From NCBI GenBank assembly GCA_036380435.1, contig DASVES010000154.1, positions 924 to 64,923 of the forward strand: DNA of 64,000 nucleotides, written 5' to 3'. This DNA is from Pyrinomonadaceae bacterium (GTDB lineage: Bacteria; Acidobacteriota; Blastocatellia; Pyrinomonadales; Pyrinomonadaceae). Position 1 is the stretch's first letter. Each line of letters opens with the position of its first letter. Both the position numbers and the translations under genes were made by a program. Shown here one piece after another: positions 614 through 48,300 of this stretch. The notes under the pieces were generated by a model. It was not told the origin of the DNA. It ran no database searches and saw only the letters and a list, made by a program, of their open reading frames with translations.

Positions 614-1282
614 TTGCTCGAAGTCTCGAATCTCTACAAAGAATACCCGACGCCGCAGGGGCCGCTCGCGATCCTCTCGGACGTGTCGCTGGCGCTCCGG
701 CGCGGCGACGCGGTCTCGATCATGGGGCCTTCGGGCAGCGGCAAGTCAACGCTGCTCTACATCGTCGGCGCGCTGGAGCGGCCAACCGGCGGGCGCGTCA
801 CGCTCGACGGGCAAGACCCGTTCTCCCTGCGCGAAAAAGAACTGGCCGCCTTCCGCAACGAGCGCGTCGGCTTCGTCTTTCAGGATCACTGTCTGCTGCC
901 GCAGTGTAACGTTATCGAGAACGTGCTCGCGCCGACGCTCGTCTCTAAAAACGGCGACGACGCGGCCGGGCGCGCGCGCGAGCTGTTGGAACAGGTCGGA
1001 CTCAGCGGGCGCACGTCGCACCGCCCCGCAGAGCTTTCGGGCGGCGAGAAGCAGCGCGTCTCGCTCGCCCGCGCGCTCATCCGCCGCCCGTCGCTGCTTC
1101 TGTGCGACGAGCCGACGGGCAACCTCGACGCGCGCGCGGCCGAGTCGGTCGCCTCGCTCCTCTTCGAGCTGCACCGGCGGCAGGAGACCATCCTCATCGT
1201 CGTCACCCACAGCGCGGAGCTGGCCGCGCGCTTCCCCCTGCGCTACGAACTCGTCGGACAGCAGCTCCGCCCCCGCCAATGA
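614..1282 (+). CDS. ABC transporter ATP-binding protein (LolD/MacB type)
   Basis: Walker A GPSGSGKST, signature LSGGEKQRV, Walker B LLLCDEPT. TTG start. The stop overlaps the next start (ATGA at 1279-1282). Confidence 0.92.
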   Translation: MLEVSNLYKEYPTPQGPLAILSDVSLALRRGDAVSIMGPSGSGKSTLLYIVGALERPTGGRVTLDGQDPFSLREKELAAFRNERVGFVFQDHCLLPQCNVIENVLAPTLVSKNGDDAAGRARELLEQVGLSGRTSHRPAELSGGEKQRVSLARALIRRPSLLLCDEPTGNLDARAAESVASLLFELHRRQETILIVVTHSAELAARFPLRYELVGQQLRPRQ

Positions 1283-4200
1283 CCACCGCCACACTCCTCC
1301 GCCGCAACCTCACCTTCTTCTGGCGCACGAACCTCGCGGTCGTCCTGGGCGTGGCCGCCGCCACGGCCGTCCTCGCCGGCGCGCTCCTCGTCGGCGACTC
1401 CGTGCGCGCCTCCCTGCGTAACATTTTCCTCGGCCGTTTGGGCCGCGCCGACCACGTCGTCTCGTCCGCCGGCTTCTTCCGCGAGGCGCTGGCCGAAGAC
1501 TTGAGAGGCGACGCGCGGTTCGCGTCGGGCGGGTTCGACGGAGCCTGCCCGCTCGTCATCCTCGAAGGCGCCGTCACGCACGAGGAGACGGGCCGACGCG
1601 CGGCCGGCGTCGCGGTCTACGGCGTGGACGAACGCTTCTGGGAGTTTCACGGCGTGGACGGCGCCGGTGAGATTGCCCCGCGACGGCGCGACGTGCTCGC
1701 CAGCCCGAGCCTCGCCGGCGAGCTTGAGCTGAAGGCGGGCGACGTGTTGCTGCTGAGAGTGGAGAAGCCCTCGTCGATCCCGGCCGAGTCGCTGCACGGG
1801 CGCAAGGACGACCTCGGCCGCACCATCCGTCTCACGGCGCGCGACACGCTCGACGCCGCGCGCATGGGCGACTTCAGCGCGCGAGCGCAACAGTCAGCCG
1901 TCCGCGCCGTCTTCGTCCCGCTCAGATTGCTGCAACAAGACTTAGAGCAGGACGGCCGCGTCAACTCCCTCCTCGTCTCGACCGCGGGCGGCGACGATGG
2001 CGCGGACGAGCGCGAAGACGCTGCGCGCACCGCGACGCTTGAGGCGATCATCAAAGAGCGCGCTTCGCTCGAAGACCTCGGCATCCGTCTGCGCGCGCTG
2101 CCCGAGCGCGGAAGCATCTCGCTCGAAACCGAGAGCGCCGTCGTCACGGATGCGCTTTACGAGACGGCCCGCGAGGCGGCACGCGCTTCGGGCCTGCGCG
2201 CCGCGCCCGTCCTCTCCTATCTCGCCAACACGATCCGCGTCGGCGCGCGCGAAGTGCCTTACTCGCTCGTGACCGCCATCGATGACGAAACCTTCGAGGG
2301 CTTGCGGCGAACGGCGACGCAGACACAGGGCGACGGAGTGACAGGGCAACAGGGCGACGGGGCGACTGGCGTCGATTCGTCTGCGAGTCAAACGTCATCG
2401 GCTGCCTCGCCGTCGCCGCCCACCGACTCCCAACCCCCAACCCCGATCCTTTTGAACGAGTGGGCCGCGCTCGACCTCGGCGCGCGCACGGGCGACGAAC
2501 TCCAGCTCGAATACTACGTGTGGAAGGAGGACAACCGGCTCGCGGCCGAGAGCGCGCGGTTCCGCGTCGCGGGCGTCGTCCCCATCGCCGGCCTCGCGGC
2601 GGACAGAGACCTCGTCCCCGTCTACCCCGGCATCACCGAGTCGGAGAGCCTTGCCGAGTGGGACCCGCCGTTCCCCGTCGAGCTAAAGCGTGTGCGCCGG
2701 CAGGACGAGGACTACTGGAAGCAGCATCGCACGACGCCGAAAGCGTTCGTCCCGCTCGAAGCCGGGCAAAGACTCTGGCAGACGCGCTTCGGCCGCCTCA
2801 CCTCCGTCCGCATCGACACGCCGGGCGCAGCGGCGACAACCGTTGACGCGCCGGGCGGCGCACAGTTTCAGGCGTCGTTCAATGCGTACCGCGACGAGTT
2901 GAAAAAGTTGATCGACCCGGCGCGCGTGGGACTCGGGGCCTACGGCGCGCGCGCGCAGGGGCTGGCGGCGTCGCGCGGGGCGACGAACTTCGGCGAGTAC
3001 TTCCTCTACTTCAGCTTTTTCATCGTCGTCTCGGCGCTGATGCTCACCGCGCTCTTCTTCAAGCTCGGCGTCGAGCAGCGTCTGCGCGAGATCGGCGTGC
3101 TGCGCGCCGTGGGCTTTCCGCCCGCGCGCGTCCGCAACATCTTTCTCGCCGAAGGGTTCGTGCTCGCGCTCCTGGGCAGCCTGCTCGGACTCGCCGGAGC
3201 CGTCCTCTACGGAAACCTGATGGTGCATGGCCTGCGCACGTGGTGGGTTGACGCCGTCGGCACGACGAGTATCGCCTTGCGCGTCTCGCCGTGGTCGCTC
3301 GCGGCGGGCGCGGCCGGCGCCGTCGTCGCCGCGCTCCTGTGCGTCGTCTGGACGTTGCGCCGGCTCGTGCCCGCGTCGCCGCGCAGCCTGCTCGCCGGTA
3401 AGCCGGAAGGGGGAAGGAGTAAAGGGGAAGGGGTAAAGGCCGGCGGCGCGGCGCGGCGCAAACTTTTGCCCTTTACCCTTTACCCTTTACCCCTTGCCCT
3501 CCTGCTCGCGGCCGTCGGCGTCGCCCTGCTTGTCGCGGCGTGGCTGAAGGCAGTGGGACAGGTGGCGGGGTTCTTCGGCGGTGGGACGCTTCTGCTCGTG
3601 GCGCTGCTGCTGGCGCAGGCCGGCTGGCTGAGAGGCGGACGCAGGAGAGGCGCGTCGATTCAGGGGCATGGCTTCTGGCCGGTGTCGCGTCTGGGTTTTC
3701 GCGGCGCGACGTATCGGCCGGCGCGAAGCGTCTTGTGCATCGCGCTCATCGCGTCGGCCGCCTTCATCGTCGTCGCCGTCGATGCCTTCCGGCGCGACGA
3801 CCGCGCGGCCTCGACGGAGCGCAAGTCGGGAAGCGGCGGCTACGCGCTCCTCGGCACGGCGCTGCTGCCAGTCATCCCCGACCCGAACACCGCCGAAGGG
3901 CGCGACGCGCTGGGCCTCGCGGCCGACGATGAGACGCGCGCGGCGCTCGCCGGCGTCGAGGCGGCGCGCTTCCGCCTGCGCCCCGGCGACGACGCGAGTT
4001 GTCTGAATCTCTACCAGCCGCGCAACCCGCGCATCCTCGCGCCGTCGGCCGATTTCGTCGCCAGCGGCCGCTTCGACTTTCAGGACTCGCTGGCCGAGTC
4101 CGCGGAAGAGAAGTCGAACCCGTGGCTGCTGCTGGGCCGCGACACGTCGGACGCTACGGTGCCCGTCATCGCCGACGCCAACTCGCTCAACTACGTCCTC

Positions 4201-4872
4201 CACCTCGGCCTCGGCGACGTGTTCGAGCTTGCCGGGGCGGGCGGCGAGCCTGTCCGTCTGCGCGTCGTCGGCGCGCTCGCCGACAGCGTCTTTCAGGGCG
4301 AGATGCTGATGTCGGAGTCAAACTTCCGACGCCTCTTCCCCGAACAGGAGGGCTACAGATTCTTCCTGCTCGACGTGCCGCCCGAGCGCGCCGCCCGCGT
4401 GGCCGGCATACTCGAAGAACGACTCGCCGATTACGGCTTCGACGCGGAGGCCACGGCCGAGCGCCTCGCGAGCTTTCATCGCGTCGAGAACACATTCCTC
4501 TCGACCTTCCAGATGCTCGGCGGCCTGGGTCTCGTGCTCGGCACTTTGGGCCTCGCGGCCGTGCTCCTGCGCAACGTCCTCGAACGCCGGAGGGAACTGG
4601 CGCTGCTGCGCGCCGTCGGCTACAACCGCTCACACTTCGCGCTGATGGCGCTGGCCGAGAACGCGCTGCTCCTGTTCTGCGGCCTGCTAACGGGCACGCT
4701 CTGCGCGCTCCTCGCCGTCGCGCCCGTCTCGCTCGCGCGCGGCGGACGGCTCCCGCTCGCCTCGGTCGGCCTGCTCCTCGCGGCCGTCGTCGCCGCCGGC
4801 CTGCTGTCGTCGCTCCTCGCCACCGTCGTCGCCCTGCGCTCGCCGCTCATCCCGACATTGCGCGCGGAGTAG
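1279..4872 (+). CDS. Very large FtsX-family ABC transporter permease with two permease modules
   Basis: ATG 1279 overlaps the ATPase stop. N-terminal LRRNLTFFWRTNLAVVLGVAAATAVLAGALLVGDS. Two FtsX-like blocks (…REIGVLRAVGFPPARVRNIFLAEG… and …RELALLRAVGYNRSHFALMALAEN…). The track start at 1102 is an Arg-rich shadow extension inside the ATPase gene. Confidence 0.85.
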   Translation: MTTATLLRRNLTFFWRTNLAVVLGVAAATAVLAGALLVGDSVRASLRNIFLGRLGRADHVVSSAGFFREALAEDLRGDARFASGGFDGACPLVILEGAVTHEETGRRAAGVAVYGVDERFWEFHGVDGAGEIAPRRRDVLASPSLAGELELKAGDVLLLRVEKPSSIPAESLHGRKDDLGRTIRLTARDTLDAARMGDFSARAQQSAVRAVFVPLRLLQQDLEQDGRVNSLLVSTAGGDDGADEREDAARTATLEAIIKERASLEDLGIRLRALPERGSISLETESAVVTDALYETAREAARASGLRAAPVLSYLANTIRVGAREVPYSLVTAIDDETFEGLRRTATQTQGDGVTGQQGDGATGVDSSASQTSSAASPSPPTDSQPPTPILLNEWAALDLGARTGDELQLEYYVWKEDNRLAAESARFRVAGVVPIAGLAADRDLVPVYPGITESESLAEWDPPFPVELKRVRRQDEDYWKQHRTTPKAFVPLEAGQRLWQTRFGRLTSVRIDTPGAAATTVDAPGGAQFQASFNAYRDELKKLIDPARVGLGAYGARAQGLAASRGATNFGEYFLYFSFFIVVSALMLTALFFKLGVEQRLREIGVLRAVGFPPARVRNIFLAEGFVLALLGSLLGLAGAVLYGNLMVHGLRTWWVDAVGTTSIALRVSPWSLAAGAAGAVVAALLCVVWTLRRLVPASPRSLLAGKPEGGRSKGEGVKAGGAARRKLLPFTLYPLPLALLLAAVGVALLVAAWLKAVGQVAGFFGGGTLLLVALLLAQAGWLRGGRRRGASIQGHGFWPVSRLGFRGATYRPARSVLCIALIASAAFIVVAVDAFRRDDRAASTERKSGSGGYALLGTALLPVIPDPNTAEGRDALGLAADDETRAALAGVEAARFRLRPGDDASCLNLYQPRNPRILAPSADFVASGRFDFQDSLAESAEEKSNPWLLLGRDTSDATVPVIADANSLNYVLHLGLGDVFELAGAGGEPVRLRVVGALADSVFQGEMLMSESNFRRLFPEQEGYRFFLLDVPPERAARVAGILEERLADYGFDAEATAERLASFHRVENTFLSTFQMLGGLGLVLGTLGLAAVLLRNVLERRRELALLRAVGYNRSHFALMALAENALLLFCGLLTGTLCALLAVAPVSLARGGRLPLASVGLLLAAVVAAGLLSSLLATVVALRSPLIPTLRAE
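3406..3502. repeat. Heptamer-arm hairpin (GTAAAGG / CCTTTAC) lying in frame inside the permease CDS
   Basis: Left arm ggaagggggaaggagtaaaggggaaggggtaaaggc, right arm gccctttaccctttaccctttaccccttgccctcc, GC-rich loop. Encodes GKPEGGRSKGEGVKAGGAARRKLLPFTLYPLPLALLL without breaking the ORF. Confidence 0.85.
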
Positions 4873-8782: not shown

Positions 8783-8801
8783 AGAAGACCTCTCGGAAGA
8801 A

Positions 8802-8921
8802 GGGAGTCAGGAGTCAGGAGTCAGGAGTCAGAATAAAAACCTCCGACCGCGCCGGTCTGTGGTAACACGGCGGCCGTCCGTCGTCAATCTTCTGACTCCT
8901 GTCTTCTGACTCCTGACTCCC
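8802..8921. repeat. GAGTCAG heptamer-arm hairpin, copy 1
   Basis: gggagtcaggagtcaggagtcaggagtcagaataaaaac ... cttctgactcctgtcttctgactcctgactccc, followed by ttttttat. Confidence 0.9.
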
Positions 8922-8928
8922 TTTTTTA

Positions 8929-16204: not shown

Positions 16205-16876
16205 ATGAGCAACAAGATCGTCGTTCCGCGCAGGGAGTTTTTGCTGGCGGGCGCGGCGGCCGTCCCACTCCTCGGCGTCGCGGCCTCTCGCATGAAGCAG
16301 GGCGTCGTTGTCGAGCCGCTGGCGGCCAACGACGCTTCCGCCGCGGCCGAGACGTGTCGTCTCACGGAGGAGAGCCAGTACGGCCCCTTCTATCGCGAGG
16401 GCGCACCGTGGCGCGCGAAATTCTGCGGCTTGGAGGAGCCGGGCGAGCGGCTCACAATCGCGGGCCGCGTGACGGCCGCCGACAACTGCCAGCCGCTCAA
16501 AGACGCCGTCCTCGACGTGTGGCACGCGAGCGCCGCCGGCTTCTACGACAACAACGACCCGGCGCGCCCTTTCGACCCCGCGCGCTATCATCTGCGCGGC
16601 CGCGTCCGCACGGACTCGGACGGCCGCTACCAGTTCGAGACCGTCCTGCCCGGCAACTACGGACAGGGCCGCTTCATGCGCGCCAAGCACATCCACCTGC
16701 TCGTCACCTGCGCCGGCCGCGCGCCGCTCGTCACCGAAATCTACTTCGCTGGCGACAAGCACAACGACACCGACGGCCTCGTCCGCCGCTCACTCATCAC
16801 GCAGTTGTCGGGCGCCGCCCGCGAGAAGGACGCCGCTCCACAGCGCGGCACGTTCGACATCACTCTGGGGAAGTGA
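16205..16876 (+). CDS. Intradiol ring-cleavage dioxygenase-like protein with Tat-type leader
   Basis: MSNKIVVPRREFLLAGAAAVPLLG. Core YGPFYREGAP…LDVWHASAAGFYD…RGRVRTDSDGRYQFETVLPGNY…RAKHIHLLV. Stop TGA 16874-16876 lies inside the GTGATAA arm. Confidence 0.8.
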   Translation: MSNKIVVPRREFLLAGAAAVPLLGVAASRMKQGVVVEPLAANDASAAAETCRLTEESQYGPFYREGAPWRAKFCGLEEPGERLTIAGRVTAADNCQPLKDAVLDVWHASAAGFYDNNDPARPFDPARYHLRGRVRTDSDGRYQFETVLPGNYGQGRFMRAKHIHLLVTCAGRAPLVTEIYFAGDKHNDTDGLVRRSLITQLSGAAREKDAAPQRGTFDITLGK

Positions 16877-16946
16877 TAAGTGATGAGTGATAAGTGATAA
16901 GAAAGAACTGCCTCTCTTTCTTATCACTTATCACTCATCACTTATC
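16873..16946. repeat. GTGATAA heptamer-arm hairpin, copy 1
   Basis: gtgataagtgatgagtgataagtgataagaaaga ... tctttcttatcacttatcactcatcacttatc. TGA at 16874, 16881 and 16888 covers all three frames. Confidence 0.92.
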
Positions 16947-16962
16947 CCTCCCAGAGGTGTTC

Positions 16963-27580: not shown

Positions 27581-27717
27581 ACTCACCGCAGAGGCGCAGA
27601 GGACGCGGGGAAGCAAGGATGAAGGATGAAGGATGAAGGATGAGGGGAAGACGACCTGTCTTTTTTCATCCTTCATCCTTCATCCTTCATCCTTGCCTCT
27701 GCGCCTCTGCGGTGAAT
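27581..27717. repeat. Composite hairpin: CACCGCAGAGGCGCAGAGG outer arms plus GGATGAA heptamer inner arms
   Basis: actcaccgcagaggcgcagagg…caaggatgaaggatgaaggatgaaggatga / ttcatccttcatccttcatccttcatccttgcctctgcgcctctgcggtgaat. Confidence 0.92.
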
Positions 27718-41181: not shown

Positions 41182-41200
41182 CTAGAAGCTCCTATGAATA

Positions 41201-41269
41201 GGTGATAAGTGATAAGTGATAAGTGATAAGAAAGAATTTGTCTTCTCTTATCACTTATCACTTATCACC
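41201..41269. repeat. GTGATAA heptamer-arm hairpin, copy 2 (between DUF3311 and the symporter)
   Basis: ggtgataagtgataagtgataagtgataagaaaga … tcttctcttatcacttatcacttatcacc. Confidence 0.92.
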
Positions 41270-41481
41270 TTCCGTGCCACTTCTTCTTCGAGGTGGCCGG
41301 GCCAGGCGAAGGTCACGAGCAGCCACATCAGCCCGGCGCACGCCACCGAGAAGCACGCCTGATAGAAGAGGCCGATGGGCATGAAGCCGAAGACGAAGGG
41401 GCGCGCCTCTCTCCAGTTCCAGAAGTCCTGGTGCAGCACGTAGAGCACGGCGACGGCGATGACGAGCAGCAGTTTTCTCAT
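41251..41481 (-). CDS. DUF3311 small membrane protein
   Basis: MRKLLLVIAVAVLYVLHQDFWNWREARPFVFGFMPIGLFYQ…. The C-terminal KVISDK and the TGA are encoded by the repeat arm. Confidence 0.8.
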   Translation of the reverse strand: MRKLLLVIAVAVLYVLHQDFWNWREARPFVFGFMPIGLFYQACFSVACAGLMWLLVTFAWPGHLEEEVARKVISDK

Positions 41482-47047: not shown

Positions 47048-48087
47048 CGAAGAAAAAAAAGCCGACCGTCAAGAAGCTCCGCATTCTCGTGCTCTGCCAG
47101 CACGACCTCGTCCCGCCCGACGCGCTCCCCGAGGGCGTGGCGAAGGAGACGCTGCGCTGGCGCACCGAGTACGACGTGGTCTCCACCTTACGCTCGATGG
47201 GCCACGACGTTTACCCCGTCGGCCTCTACGACGAGACGGACGTGATTCGCACGGCGATGCAGGATCACGAGCCGCACGTCGCCTTCAATCTCATCGAAGA
47301 GTTCGACCGCCAGCCCATGTTCGACCAGCACGTCGTCAGCTATCTGGAGCTGAAGCGTCTGCCCTACACGGGCTGCAACCCGCGCGGCCTGACCATCGCC
47401 AAAGATAAGGCGCTCACCAAGAAGATTCTGGCCTACCACCGTATCAACGTCCCCGGCTTCGGCGTCTTCCCGCAAGGACGCAAGGTGCGCCGGCCCGCGC
47501 GCCTGCGCTTTCCGCTGCTCGTCAAGTCCGTGACGGTCGAAGGCTCGGTCGGCATCTCGCAGGCTTCCATCGTCAACACTGACGAAAAACTCGCCGAGCG
47601 CGTCGATTTCATCCACCGGCAGACGAACTCGCCGGCCATCGCCGAGGAGTTCATCGAGGGGAGAGAAATCTACGTCGGCGTCATCGGCAACCGTCTGCTG
47701 AAGGCTTACACGCCGTGGGAGCTGGAGATGAAGACGCTGCCCGAGGGGACTGTGAACATCGCCACGGGGAAGGTGAAGTGGAACCCGAAGTATCAGGAGA
47801 AAGTCGGCCTCGTCACGCACGCGGCCGAGGTCACGCCCGAGCTGCGCCGCCGCCTCGAACATCTCTCGAAGCGCATCTACCGCCTGCTGTTTCTCTCCGG
47901 CTACGGCCGTCTCGACTACCGCATCACCGAGGACGGCCGCATCTATCTCCTCGAAGCCAACCCCAACCCGCAAATCGCCCACAACGAGGACTTCGCCGAC
48001 TCGGCCGAAGACTGCGGCGTCAAATACGGCCCGCTGCTCCAGAAAATCCTCACCCTCGGCATGAGCTACGAGCCGGGCGTGGTGTAA
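47044..48087 (+). CDS. ATP-grasp ligase, D-Ala-D-Ala ligase-like family
   Basis: …KDKALTKKILAYHRINVPGF…PLLVKSVTVEGSVGIS…EEFIEGREIYVGV…GRLDYRITEDGRIYLLEANPNP. The track ORF from 46321 is an out-of-frame shadow extension. Confidence 0.85.
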   Translation: MTKKKKPTVKKLRILVLCQHDLVPPDALPEGVAKETLRWRTEYDVVSTLRSMGHDVYPVGLYDETDVIRTAMQDHEPHVAFNLIEEFDRQPMFDQHVVSYLELKRLPYTGCNPRGLTIAKDKALTKKILAYHRINVPGFGVFPQGRKVRRPARLRFPLLVKSVTVEGSVGISQASIVNTDEKLAERVDFIHRQTNSPAIAEEFIEGREIYVGVIGNRLLKAYTPWELEMKTLPEGTVNIATGKVKWNPKYQEKVGLVTHAAEVTPELRRRLEHLSKRIYRLLFLSGYGRLDYRITEDGRIYLLEANPNPQIAHNEDFADSAEDCGVKYGPLLQKILTLGMSYEPGVV

Positions 48088-48091
48088 AAAA

Positions 48092-48176
48092 GCAGTCAGG
48101 AGTCAGGAGTCAGGAGTCAGAATAAAAACGGAGGCGCTGTCTTCATTCTGACTCCTGACTCCTGACTCCTGGCTCC
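48092..48176. repeat. GAGTCAG heptamer-arm hairpin, copy 3
   Basis: gcagtcaggagtcaggagtcaggagtcagaataaaaac … cattctgactcctgactcctgactcctggctcc, followed by tgtttta. Confidence 0.9.
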
Positions 48177-48300
48177 TGTTTTATCCCTTTCGTCCTGAAG
48201 CGCGGCCCTTTCGTCCCACGCCGCTTCACAGGGCGGCGCGGGGGCGTTTATACTCACGCGTTTCGACGGGGTGGGCGGCGCGCGACTGTGGGTGCTTTCT

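Follow-up and report, generated by a model that had tools for sequence, protein, structure and literature searches.

In the present study, we analyzed a 64,000-nucleotide stretch of contig DASVES010000154.1 (positions 924 to 64,923 of the forward strand; hereafter the window) from a Pyrinomonadaceae bacterium, focusing on a hairpin-forming element with heptamer-built arms that lies in frame inside a permease gene. The source assembly is a Pyrinomonadaceae metagenome-assembled genome (MAG) of 5.2 Mb with 65.5% GC in 532 contigs, and is referred to as G000; G001 to G003 denote three genomes of the same genus, and L-numbers denote orthologous loci. An ABC transporter ATPase gene (614..1282, + strand; Pfam ABC_tran, E = 2.9e-34) precedes the permease gene, and its stop codon overlaps the permease start (ATGA). 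The permease gene (1279..4872, + strand) encodes 1197 amino acids (aa) with duplicated MacB_PCD and FtsX modules and 10 predicted transmembrane (TM) helices, and is intact: the open frame 1102/1279-4872 is uninterrupted, and no stop is encountered from the ATG at 1279 until 4872. An earlier note on this DNA had described a heptamer-arm hairpin inside this uninterrupted coding sequence (CDS), a description with which the sequence, its translation, and its fold all agree.

Regarding the host protein, FtsX was matched in two stretches (Pfam, E = 1.2e-25) and MacB_PCD at E = 7.8e-10. Homologues numbered 4908 in total, the best 120 of which were 1111-1235 aa long and 57-65% identical, nearly all with 100% coverage, and were mostly named as Pyrinomonadaceae or Blastocatellia; the leading matches had lengths of 1130-1220 aa at 100% coverage. 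The ADOP duplicated permease (TIGR03434) was considered as an identity for the gene and rejected, the score being 26.8 bits against an NCBIfam cut-off of 622; the host permease is a different, longer fused MacB_PCD/FtsX family.

The element occupies 3405-3502 and reads GGAAGGGGGAAGGAGTAAAGGGGAAGGGGTAAAGGCC, a 26-nt GC-rich loop, and GCCCTTTACCCTTTACCCTTTACCCCTTGCCCTCC; the end point given in the earlier note (3406-3502) stands, while the start has to be moved, the left arm beginning at 3405. The purine-rich left arm (3405..3441, + strand; GGAAGGG GGAAGGA GTAAAGG GGAAGGG GTAAAGG CC) encodes EGGRSKGEGVKA. It is followed by the GC-rich loop GGCGGCGCGGCGCGGCGCAAACTTTT (3442..3467, + strand), which contains a small inner stem and encodes GGAARRKLL, and by the pyrimidine-rich right arm (3468..3502, + strand; G CCCTTTA CCCTTTA CCCTTTA CCCCTTG CCCTCC; period-7 score 19), which encodes LPFTLYPLPLAL. 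The heptamer word CCCTTTACCCTTTACC is unique within the window, where the expected number is 0. An inverted-repeat search delimited arms at 3410-3439 and 3470-3499, each of 30 nt, 87% complementary and 30 nt apart. The minimum free energy predicted by RNAfold for 3396-3512 was -63.8 kcal/mol, compared with -50.1 +/- 3.8 for dinucleotide shuffles (z -3.58; 0 of 200 as good), and the strong mid-gene mRNA hairpin previously proposed is thus borne out as a predicted fold. The stem is weaker than those of intergenic copies of the same repeat (-0.61 vs a median of -0.79 kcal/mol per nt). No terminator-like site was found in 3200-3700, the right arm being followed by CCTGCTCGCGGCC with no U-tract, and no internal promoter was found at the element. 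A search of Rfam yielded a best match of 31 bits against a gathering threshold of 97, and all of the matches were to eukaryotic or viral microRNA-precursor models, generic to long hairpins.

The permease frame reads its copy of the element as GGRSKGEGVKAGGAARRKLLPFTLYPLPLA (SKGEGVK...PFTLYPLPL), and the predicted peptides of the in-frame element are GEGVKAGGAAR and LLPFTLYPLPLALLLAAVGVALLVAAWLK. As had been noted, two heptamers on the coding strand carry TAA and both are out of frame, at 3420 (T at codon position 3) and at 3434 (codon position 2). When the left arm is recast as the perfect complement of the right arm, an in-frame stop (TAA) appears at codon 717, and the imperfection of the stem is, therefore, a condition of the survival of the gene. 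The element also stands out as foreign in composition, the GC content of its third codon positions (GC3) being 0.62, compared with 0.88 for the remainder of the permease gene.

The insert corresponds to aa 709-742 and lies beyond FtsX module 1 (aa 578-697 by Pfam), between TM4 (aa 674-692) and TM5 (aa 737-755) as assigned by hydropathy; the earlier placement of the segment between two permease modules and running into a hydrophobic helix is correct. TM5 is encoded by 3487..3543 (+ strand; Kyte-Doolittle peak 2.48), its first codons being supplied by the right arm, such that the last approximately 7 residues from this arm (PLPLALL) form the first turns of the helix. In the AlphaFold model, which is weak overall (mean predicted local distance difference test score, pLDDT, of 59) and was used solely for the local contrast between coil and helix, aa 701-734 are coil with pLDDT <50, followed by helices at 736-755 (block pLDDT 84) and 761-789. 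The segment between TM4 and TM5 carries 7 K+R vs 2 D+E. Both the positive-inside rule and the topology of MacB place this segment in the cytoplasm, and on these grounds the TM4-TM5 linker is expected to be cytoplasmic. The left arm and loop are thus predicted to code for a floppy, basic, disordered loop.

The element belongs to a dispersed family of approximately 25 copies in this genome, as estimated by motif clustering. The family consensus of 76-77 nt is GGGTAAG GGGTAAA GGGGAAG GGGTAAG GG, the loop AAAGACAAGTTCTTCT, and CC CTTACCC CTTCCCC TTTACCC CTTACCC. A search with the 76-nt consensus gave 45 strand-hits in G000 at 74-97% identity, many at 90-97%, and no matches in the three same-genus genomes, with weak matches in only one other genus. 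The CDS copy as a whole fell below the threshold of this search because its loop differs from the usual family loop; its arms alone match other copies (C10, C519, C480, C314, and others) at 90-97% over 20-37 nt, and both arms match the same intergenic copies (C10, C314). It resembles variants of the repeat in which the loop is long and GC-rich (C10, C505:20090), and TTTACCC units together with a GC-rich loop are found in the intergenic variants C10:4430-4497 and C505:20103-20172. The family signature, the 18-mer GTAAAGGGGAAGGGGTAA (3419..3436, + strand; listed as C154:4342-4359), occurs at 45 sites in this genome with up to 1 mismatch and at 0 sites in G001, G002, and G003.

The design of the family bears directly on its reading as protein. 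A heptamer bearing TAA steps through the three frames in three units, and a perfect arm of three TAAAGGG units would therefore close every frame; since the third unit of the family is GGGGAAG, exactly one stop-free frame per strand is left, as was found in 30 of 40 strand-copies. This open frame reads VRGKGEGVRE(K/R)...PYPFPFTPY or ...PLPLPLYPLP, and is the frame used by the permease gene. An end tag of the GTAG/CGTC type is absent from both the consensus GGGTAAGGGGTAAAGGGGAAGGGGTAAGGG...CCC and the CDS copy. Inspection of the flanks of family copies by eye revealed no consistent target duplication, and the whole element is a single palindrome.

The genome contains 1463 period-7 tandem arrays of many unit types, many of which form hairpins with the purine arm first. 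All heptamer-armed hairpins seen in the window and the genome, among them those at 8797-8926, 16869-16952, 27602-27707, 41200-41270, and 48085-48183, place the purine-rich arm 5' and the pyrimidine-rich arm 3', the reverse being unseen, and this order holds on both strands because the elements are palindromes. A G-quadruplex motif with four G-tracts can be recognized in the family left arm, GGG TAA GGGG TAAA GGGG AA GGGG TAA GGG, and an i-motif in the right arm; only three G-runs of at least 3 are left in the CDS copy (3409-3441).

Arrays of this kind are depleted from genes. Among the 1394 arrays with enough flank, 20 lay in long open frames with coding-type GC3, which served as the proxy for a position within a gene and misses copies within 80 codons of gene ends; approximately 4-5 of the 1394 (about 0.3%) are credible. 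Most of the 20 candidates were rejected as GC-rich chance repeats in ordinary coding sequence, while the frame at C216 seems to be spurious and antisense, and C445 is probably upstream of the true gene start. The credible cases are the permease copy, C302:21120-21321, C97:242-300, and C203:1741-1766, and the clear ones sit in loops of membrane proteins or in the Mfd linker. C302:21120-21321 (locus L095) is a second in-frame copy of the GGGTAAA family, in a membrane protein of 722 aa for which no Pfam family was found. Its arms are approximately 125 nt apart, lie on either side of a basic loop that immediately precedes a hydrophobic helix, and read KGEGVKGKGEE...PFPLTLSPFPF in the same frame as the permease copy; 7 of the 8 orthologues of this protein bear arms or arrays of other families (GGAGACG, AAAAGGC, GAGAAT) in that loop. 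C97:242-300 and C203:1741-1766 are solo heptamer arrays in frame, the former in the central loop of a major facilitator superfamily transporter (RKSEVGSQHSAVSSRQWAVGE) and the latter in the linker of the transcription-repair coupling factor Mfd (ERQKEKGKRK). A palindrome with the purine arm first would supply a basic loop and then a hydrophobic stretch, and may be least harmful in a cytoplasmic loop leading into a TM helix.

The linker was compared as DNA from 91 orthologous loci, arrays were scanned in 92 orthologues, and the proteins were aligned for 120 homologues. All homologues are hypervariable between RSLLxG and GQxAGFFGGG, where the length ranges from 29 aa (Terriglobia, Bryobacterales) to 85 aa. 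The focal segment was found in none of the orthologues examined, distant ones included, and in none of them was the gene split. A clean gain in length, as a lineage-specific insertion of approximately 30 residues would show, is not seen: all linkers vary, and the 52 aa of the query are near the median. Orthologues of the same genus are 65-71% identical at the aa level, and at the corresponding position G002 (GGAAGGAAGAAAGGGAAAGGGAAAAAGGG) and G003 (AAAGGCAAAGGGTAAAAGGCAAAAGGTAAAAGGCGAAGGGGAAAGGG) have purine-rich arrays that lack a right arm. The G003 array belongs to another family (AAAGGY AAAAGGY), which is abundant in G000, G001, and G003.

Across the 92 orthologues, 29 intragenic period-7/8 arrays were detected, 21 of which fell at query aa 708-741, 5 at 341-389, 2 at 953-960, and 1 at 236-249; 2 further arrays at query positions -8 to 0 were left out as being upstream of the start. 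The linker is in this respect a hot spot within the gene. At least 12 unit types are represented, including AAGTTCA, GGTCAGT, CAGTCAG, AAAAGGC, GAAGAGTG, GACGCGGG, CGCAAAGG, and GTCGCCCC. Folds with z <= -3 were obtained in 16 of 91 linkers vs 4 of 182 size-matched control windows taken 600 nt away. Several linkers are near-perfect palindromes of 16-30 bp, including non-heptamer cases resembling repetitive extragenic palindromic (REP) sequences (L036, L049/L080) and cases in Vicinamibacterales. When mapped on a tree from which the linker columns had been excluded, the state of the hairpin shifts at least 12 times and that of hairpin or array at least 19 times, and sister pairs differ in the presence of an element (L037/L041, L053/L054, L036/L034, L013/L061). 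The Pyrinomonadaceae clade L030/L033/L035/L068/L028 has an in-frame hairpin with CGCAAAGG arms at the site (peptide SRKGAKAQRK...FAPLREK); L032, a member of the same clade, has lost the hairpin.

Considering these findings together, the element is likely to be a tolerated in-frame palindromic repeat, a somewhat decayed copy of a family that has expanded in the lineage of this genome. Since the signature exists in this genome only among the four compared, the copy would have been gained, or have replaced an earlier array through conversion, once the species had separated; from these sequence comparisons, we infer that it came from the dispersed family by one of these two routes, and that it is translated and selectively near-neutral. 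Its persistence may be attributed to four circumstances: the linker is under almost no sequence constraint, the copy is read in the one stop-free frame of the family, its net length preserves the downstream frame, and the purine arm yields a Gly/Lys/Arg/Glu loop compatible with the positive-inside rule while the pyrimidine arm yields Pro/Leu/Phe residues merging into the start of TM5. The ribosome would then read through the element, and the hairpin would be a tolerated by-product and not a device. The same linker appears to have been colonized repeatedly by other arrays of 7- or 8-nt period and by palindromes across Acidobacteriota. The suggestion in the earlier note of an intergenic-type repeat tolerated or domesticated as a protein linker is supported by the family of approximately 25 copies, the sole stop-free frame, and the intact gene as far as tolerance is concerned; domestication does not follow, only the last approximately 7 residues entering TM5.

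Several points weigh against this interpretation. No orthologue with an empty site was present among the 91 loci, and the linker is unalignable, such that the extra residues, approximately 30 in number, cannot be scored; DNA alignments of sister pairs are likewise too diverged to define the ends of elements or target duplications. The closest relatives already hold arrays of the AAAGGG type at the site, such that a one-step insertion is not established; an older array may instead have been converted, or the element may have grown in situ. Neither a target-site duplication, a terminal tag, nor a transposase has been linked to the family, and no search aimed at RAYT was made. Furthermore, compensatory changes have kept the stem in the L030 clade: pairing amounts to 90.8%, and 8 of 26 pairs have changed on both sides, a level reached by only 1 of 500 shuffles, with 0-3 such pairs in slid registers. 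Pure neutral tolerance does not predict such double-sided changes, which, coming from the sequences of five orthologues only, may be regarded as a lead and not as proof.

These changes, the excess of significant hairpins at the site over the control windows, and the near-perfect state of the 16-30-bp stems despite deep divergence of the protein favor another explanation, namely selection on the hairpin as a cis-acting element of the mRNA or DNA, which would act as a translational pause separating the membrane insertion of the half-transporters, as a processing or stability site, or as a DNA structure; the linker would then recruit palindromes for the usefulness of a stem there. We consider this explanation improbable. 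Hairpins are missing from 75 of the 91 orthologues and differ between sister pairs, no right arm is present in the same-genus G002 and G003, intergenic copies have better-preserved stems than the focal one, and neither a U-tract, a promoter, nor an Rfam match accompanies it. Palindrome-correcting mutation by template switching can yield double-sided changes, which may thus also arise by switching from arm to arm or by conversion from family copies, and the covariation comes from 5 sequences only. If a cis-element were nevertheless involved, a mid-gene hairpin might have been repeatedly recruited and maintained to pace translation and the insertion of module 1 into the membrane ahead of module 2, or to set a processing point, a scenario to which we give little credence, although the site gains palindromes far more often than other parts of the gene. 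It is equally doubtful that, on this explanation, heptamer palindromes with one open frame, which encode a basic loop and then a hydrophobic stretch, were pre-adapted to membrane proteins.

An origin of the hairpin in situ, in which a purine array grew by slippage, the second arm arose by fold-back or template switching, and the likeness to the family is convergent or due to later conversion, would account for the purine-rich arrays without a right arm in G002 and G003 and for the solo arrays in several orthologues (L007, L019, L043, L052). The right arm consists of three perfect CCCTTTA units and the left arm is irregular, as recent slippage gives, and the loop is unlike that of the family. 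This origin is also unlikely: the exact unit order of the 18-mer is common to the 45 sites in this genome and to none in the three same-genus genomes, both arms match the same intergenic copies, and some intergenic variants likewise have a GC-rich loop and TTTACCC units. An assembly artefact in which contigs were joined through the repeat, a pseudogene, or a pair of genes divided at the hairpin might be suspected in a MAG of 532 contigs, the more so as the assembly of the same-genus G002 breaks inside the linker, but this is scarcely credible, because the two flanks follow one another in frame within a single orthologous protein matched over 100% of its length, the full-length permease is collinear with more than 100 orthologues, stops are absent in 12 related genomes, a single continuous frame spans the linker in every orthologue of 41 related genomes and in 92 of 92 loci examined, and invariant residues are kept on both sides.

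The interpretation of the element as a tolerated in-frame repeat has precedents in other bacteria. The Rickettsia palindromic elements RPE-1 to RPE-10 (Ogata et al., 2000, 2002) and the Wolbachia palindromic elements are dispersed hairpins that occur both between genes and in frame within unrelated genes, which remain functional, and close to half of the RPEs of R. conorii lie inside genes (PMC10969869). The present element is similarly a dispersed hairpin repeat that is read in frame and adds tens of residues at a site compatible with the fold while the host gene remains intact; this likeness is one of functional class and not of sequence family, a sequence relationship being neither sought nor expected. 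In contrast to RPEs, which are approximately 100-150 nt long, the element and its family are approximately 76-98 nt long with tandem-heptamer arms, the host, an acidobacterium of 65% GC that lives freely in soil, has intragenic copies amounting to approximately 0.3% of arrays, and repeats of many families have entered this one linker across a phylum.

A further precedent is offered by the GTAG- and CGTC-tagged REPs of several phyla, a minority of which lie wholly inside open reading frames, encode 20-30 residues, and have been argued to survive in modular proteins (Di Nocera, De Gregorio, and Rocco, 2013; PMC3733652). The element resembles these intragenic REPs as a short intergenic palindrome with a copy wholly inside an open reading frame, whereas the REPs have stems of 5-13 bp and the present family has heptamer-repeat arms of 30 nt and no GTAG/CGTC tag. 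Heptamers of Xanthomonas (GGGAATC) and Nostoc (GGGGAYT, of the STRR type) also contain G-runs, often occur as convergent inverted pairs, and are strongly depleted within coding DNA, the copies in which were left out of that analysis (PMC4692102). Tandem units with G-runs, inverted pairs able to form stem-loops, and depletion from coding sequence are shared with the present family; the units and the phylum are different, and a fixed mosaic of three heptamer variants with a defined loop makes it a discrete element and not a variable-number repeat. [quoted passage not shown]

Heptamer-built arms, a design with a single open frame, and one linker colonized by many families are the particular features of this case, which extends the reading of selfish palindromes as protein, of the Rickettsia type, to free-living, GC-rich soil Acidobacteriota and to heptamer-armed repeats. 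It also quantifies the filter that coding sequence imposes, in that approximately 1400 arrays left a handful in genes, each in a loop or linker, with the family read in its only stop-free frame. The linker of this widespread permease family and the loop of the second membrane protein represent landing pads that record the turnover of repeats across a phylum. Such a record may be useful for dating bursts of repeat families and for avoiding split-gene calls or assembly breaks, and it bears on whether palindromes stay paired by selection or by arm-to-arm correction. The break in G002 is an example: at the starts of G002:C57 and G002:C163 (L093, L094), the assembly breaks inside the linker, and the ends overlap by 14 nt in a GC-rich quasi-palindrome; the gene would, therefore, be annotated there as two fragments.

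In addition to the linker, some minor observations were made on the permease. In a near-complete genome of the same family, the orthologue (G004:C4:588066-591552) matches in two frames that overlap near query aa 310-315, which is either a frameshift (pseudogene) or a sequencing error. A second hairpin had been considered at aa 345-390 (TQTQGDGVTGQQGDGATG...ASPSPP) and was rejected, this stretch being a period-8 array with a fold no better than shuffles (z +1.18). The degenerate period-8 array ACAGGGCAACAGGGCGACGGGGCGAC (2341..2366, + strand) encodes TGQQGDGAT (aa 355-363) in another variable segment, predicted to be disordered (pLDDT <50 at aa 350-384), and long arrays occur at the same site in Vicinamibacterales (L062, L067, L073) and in Pyrinomonadaceae (L016), with up to 10 CCGGACC units in L067.

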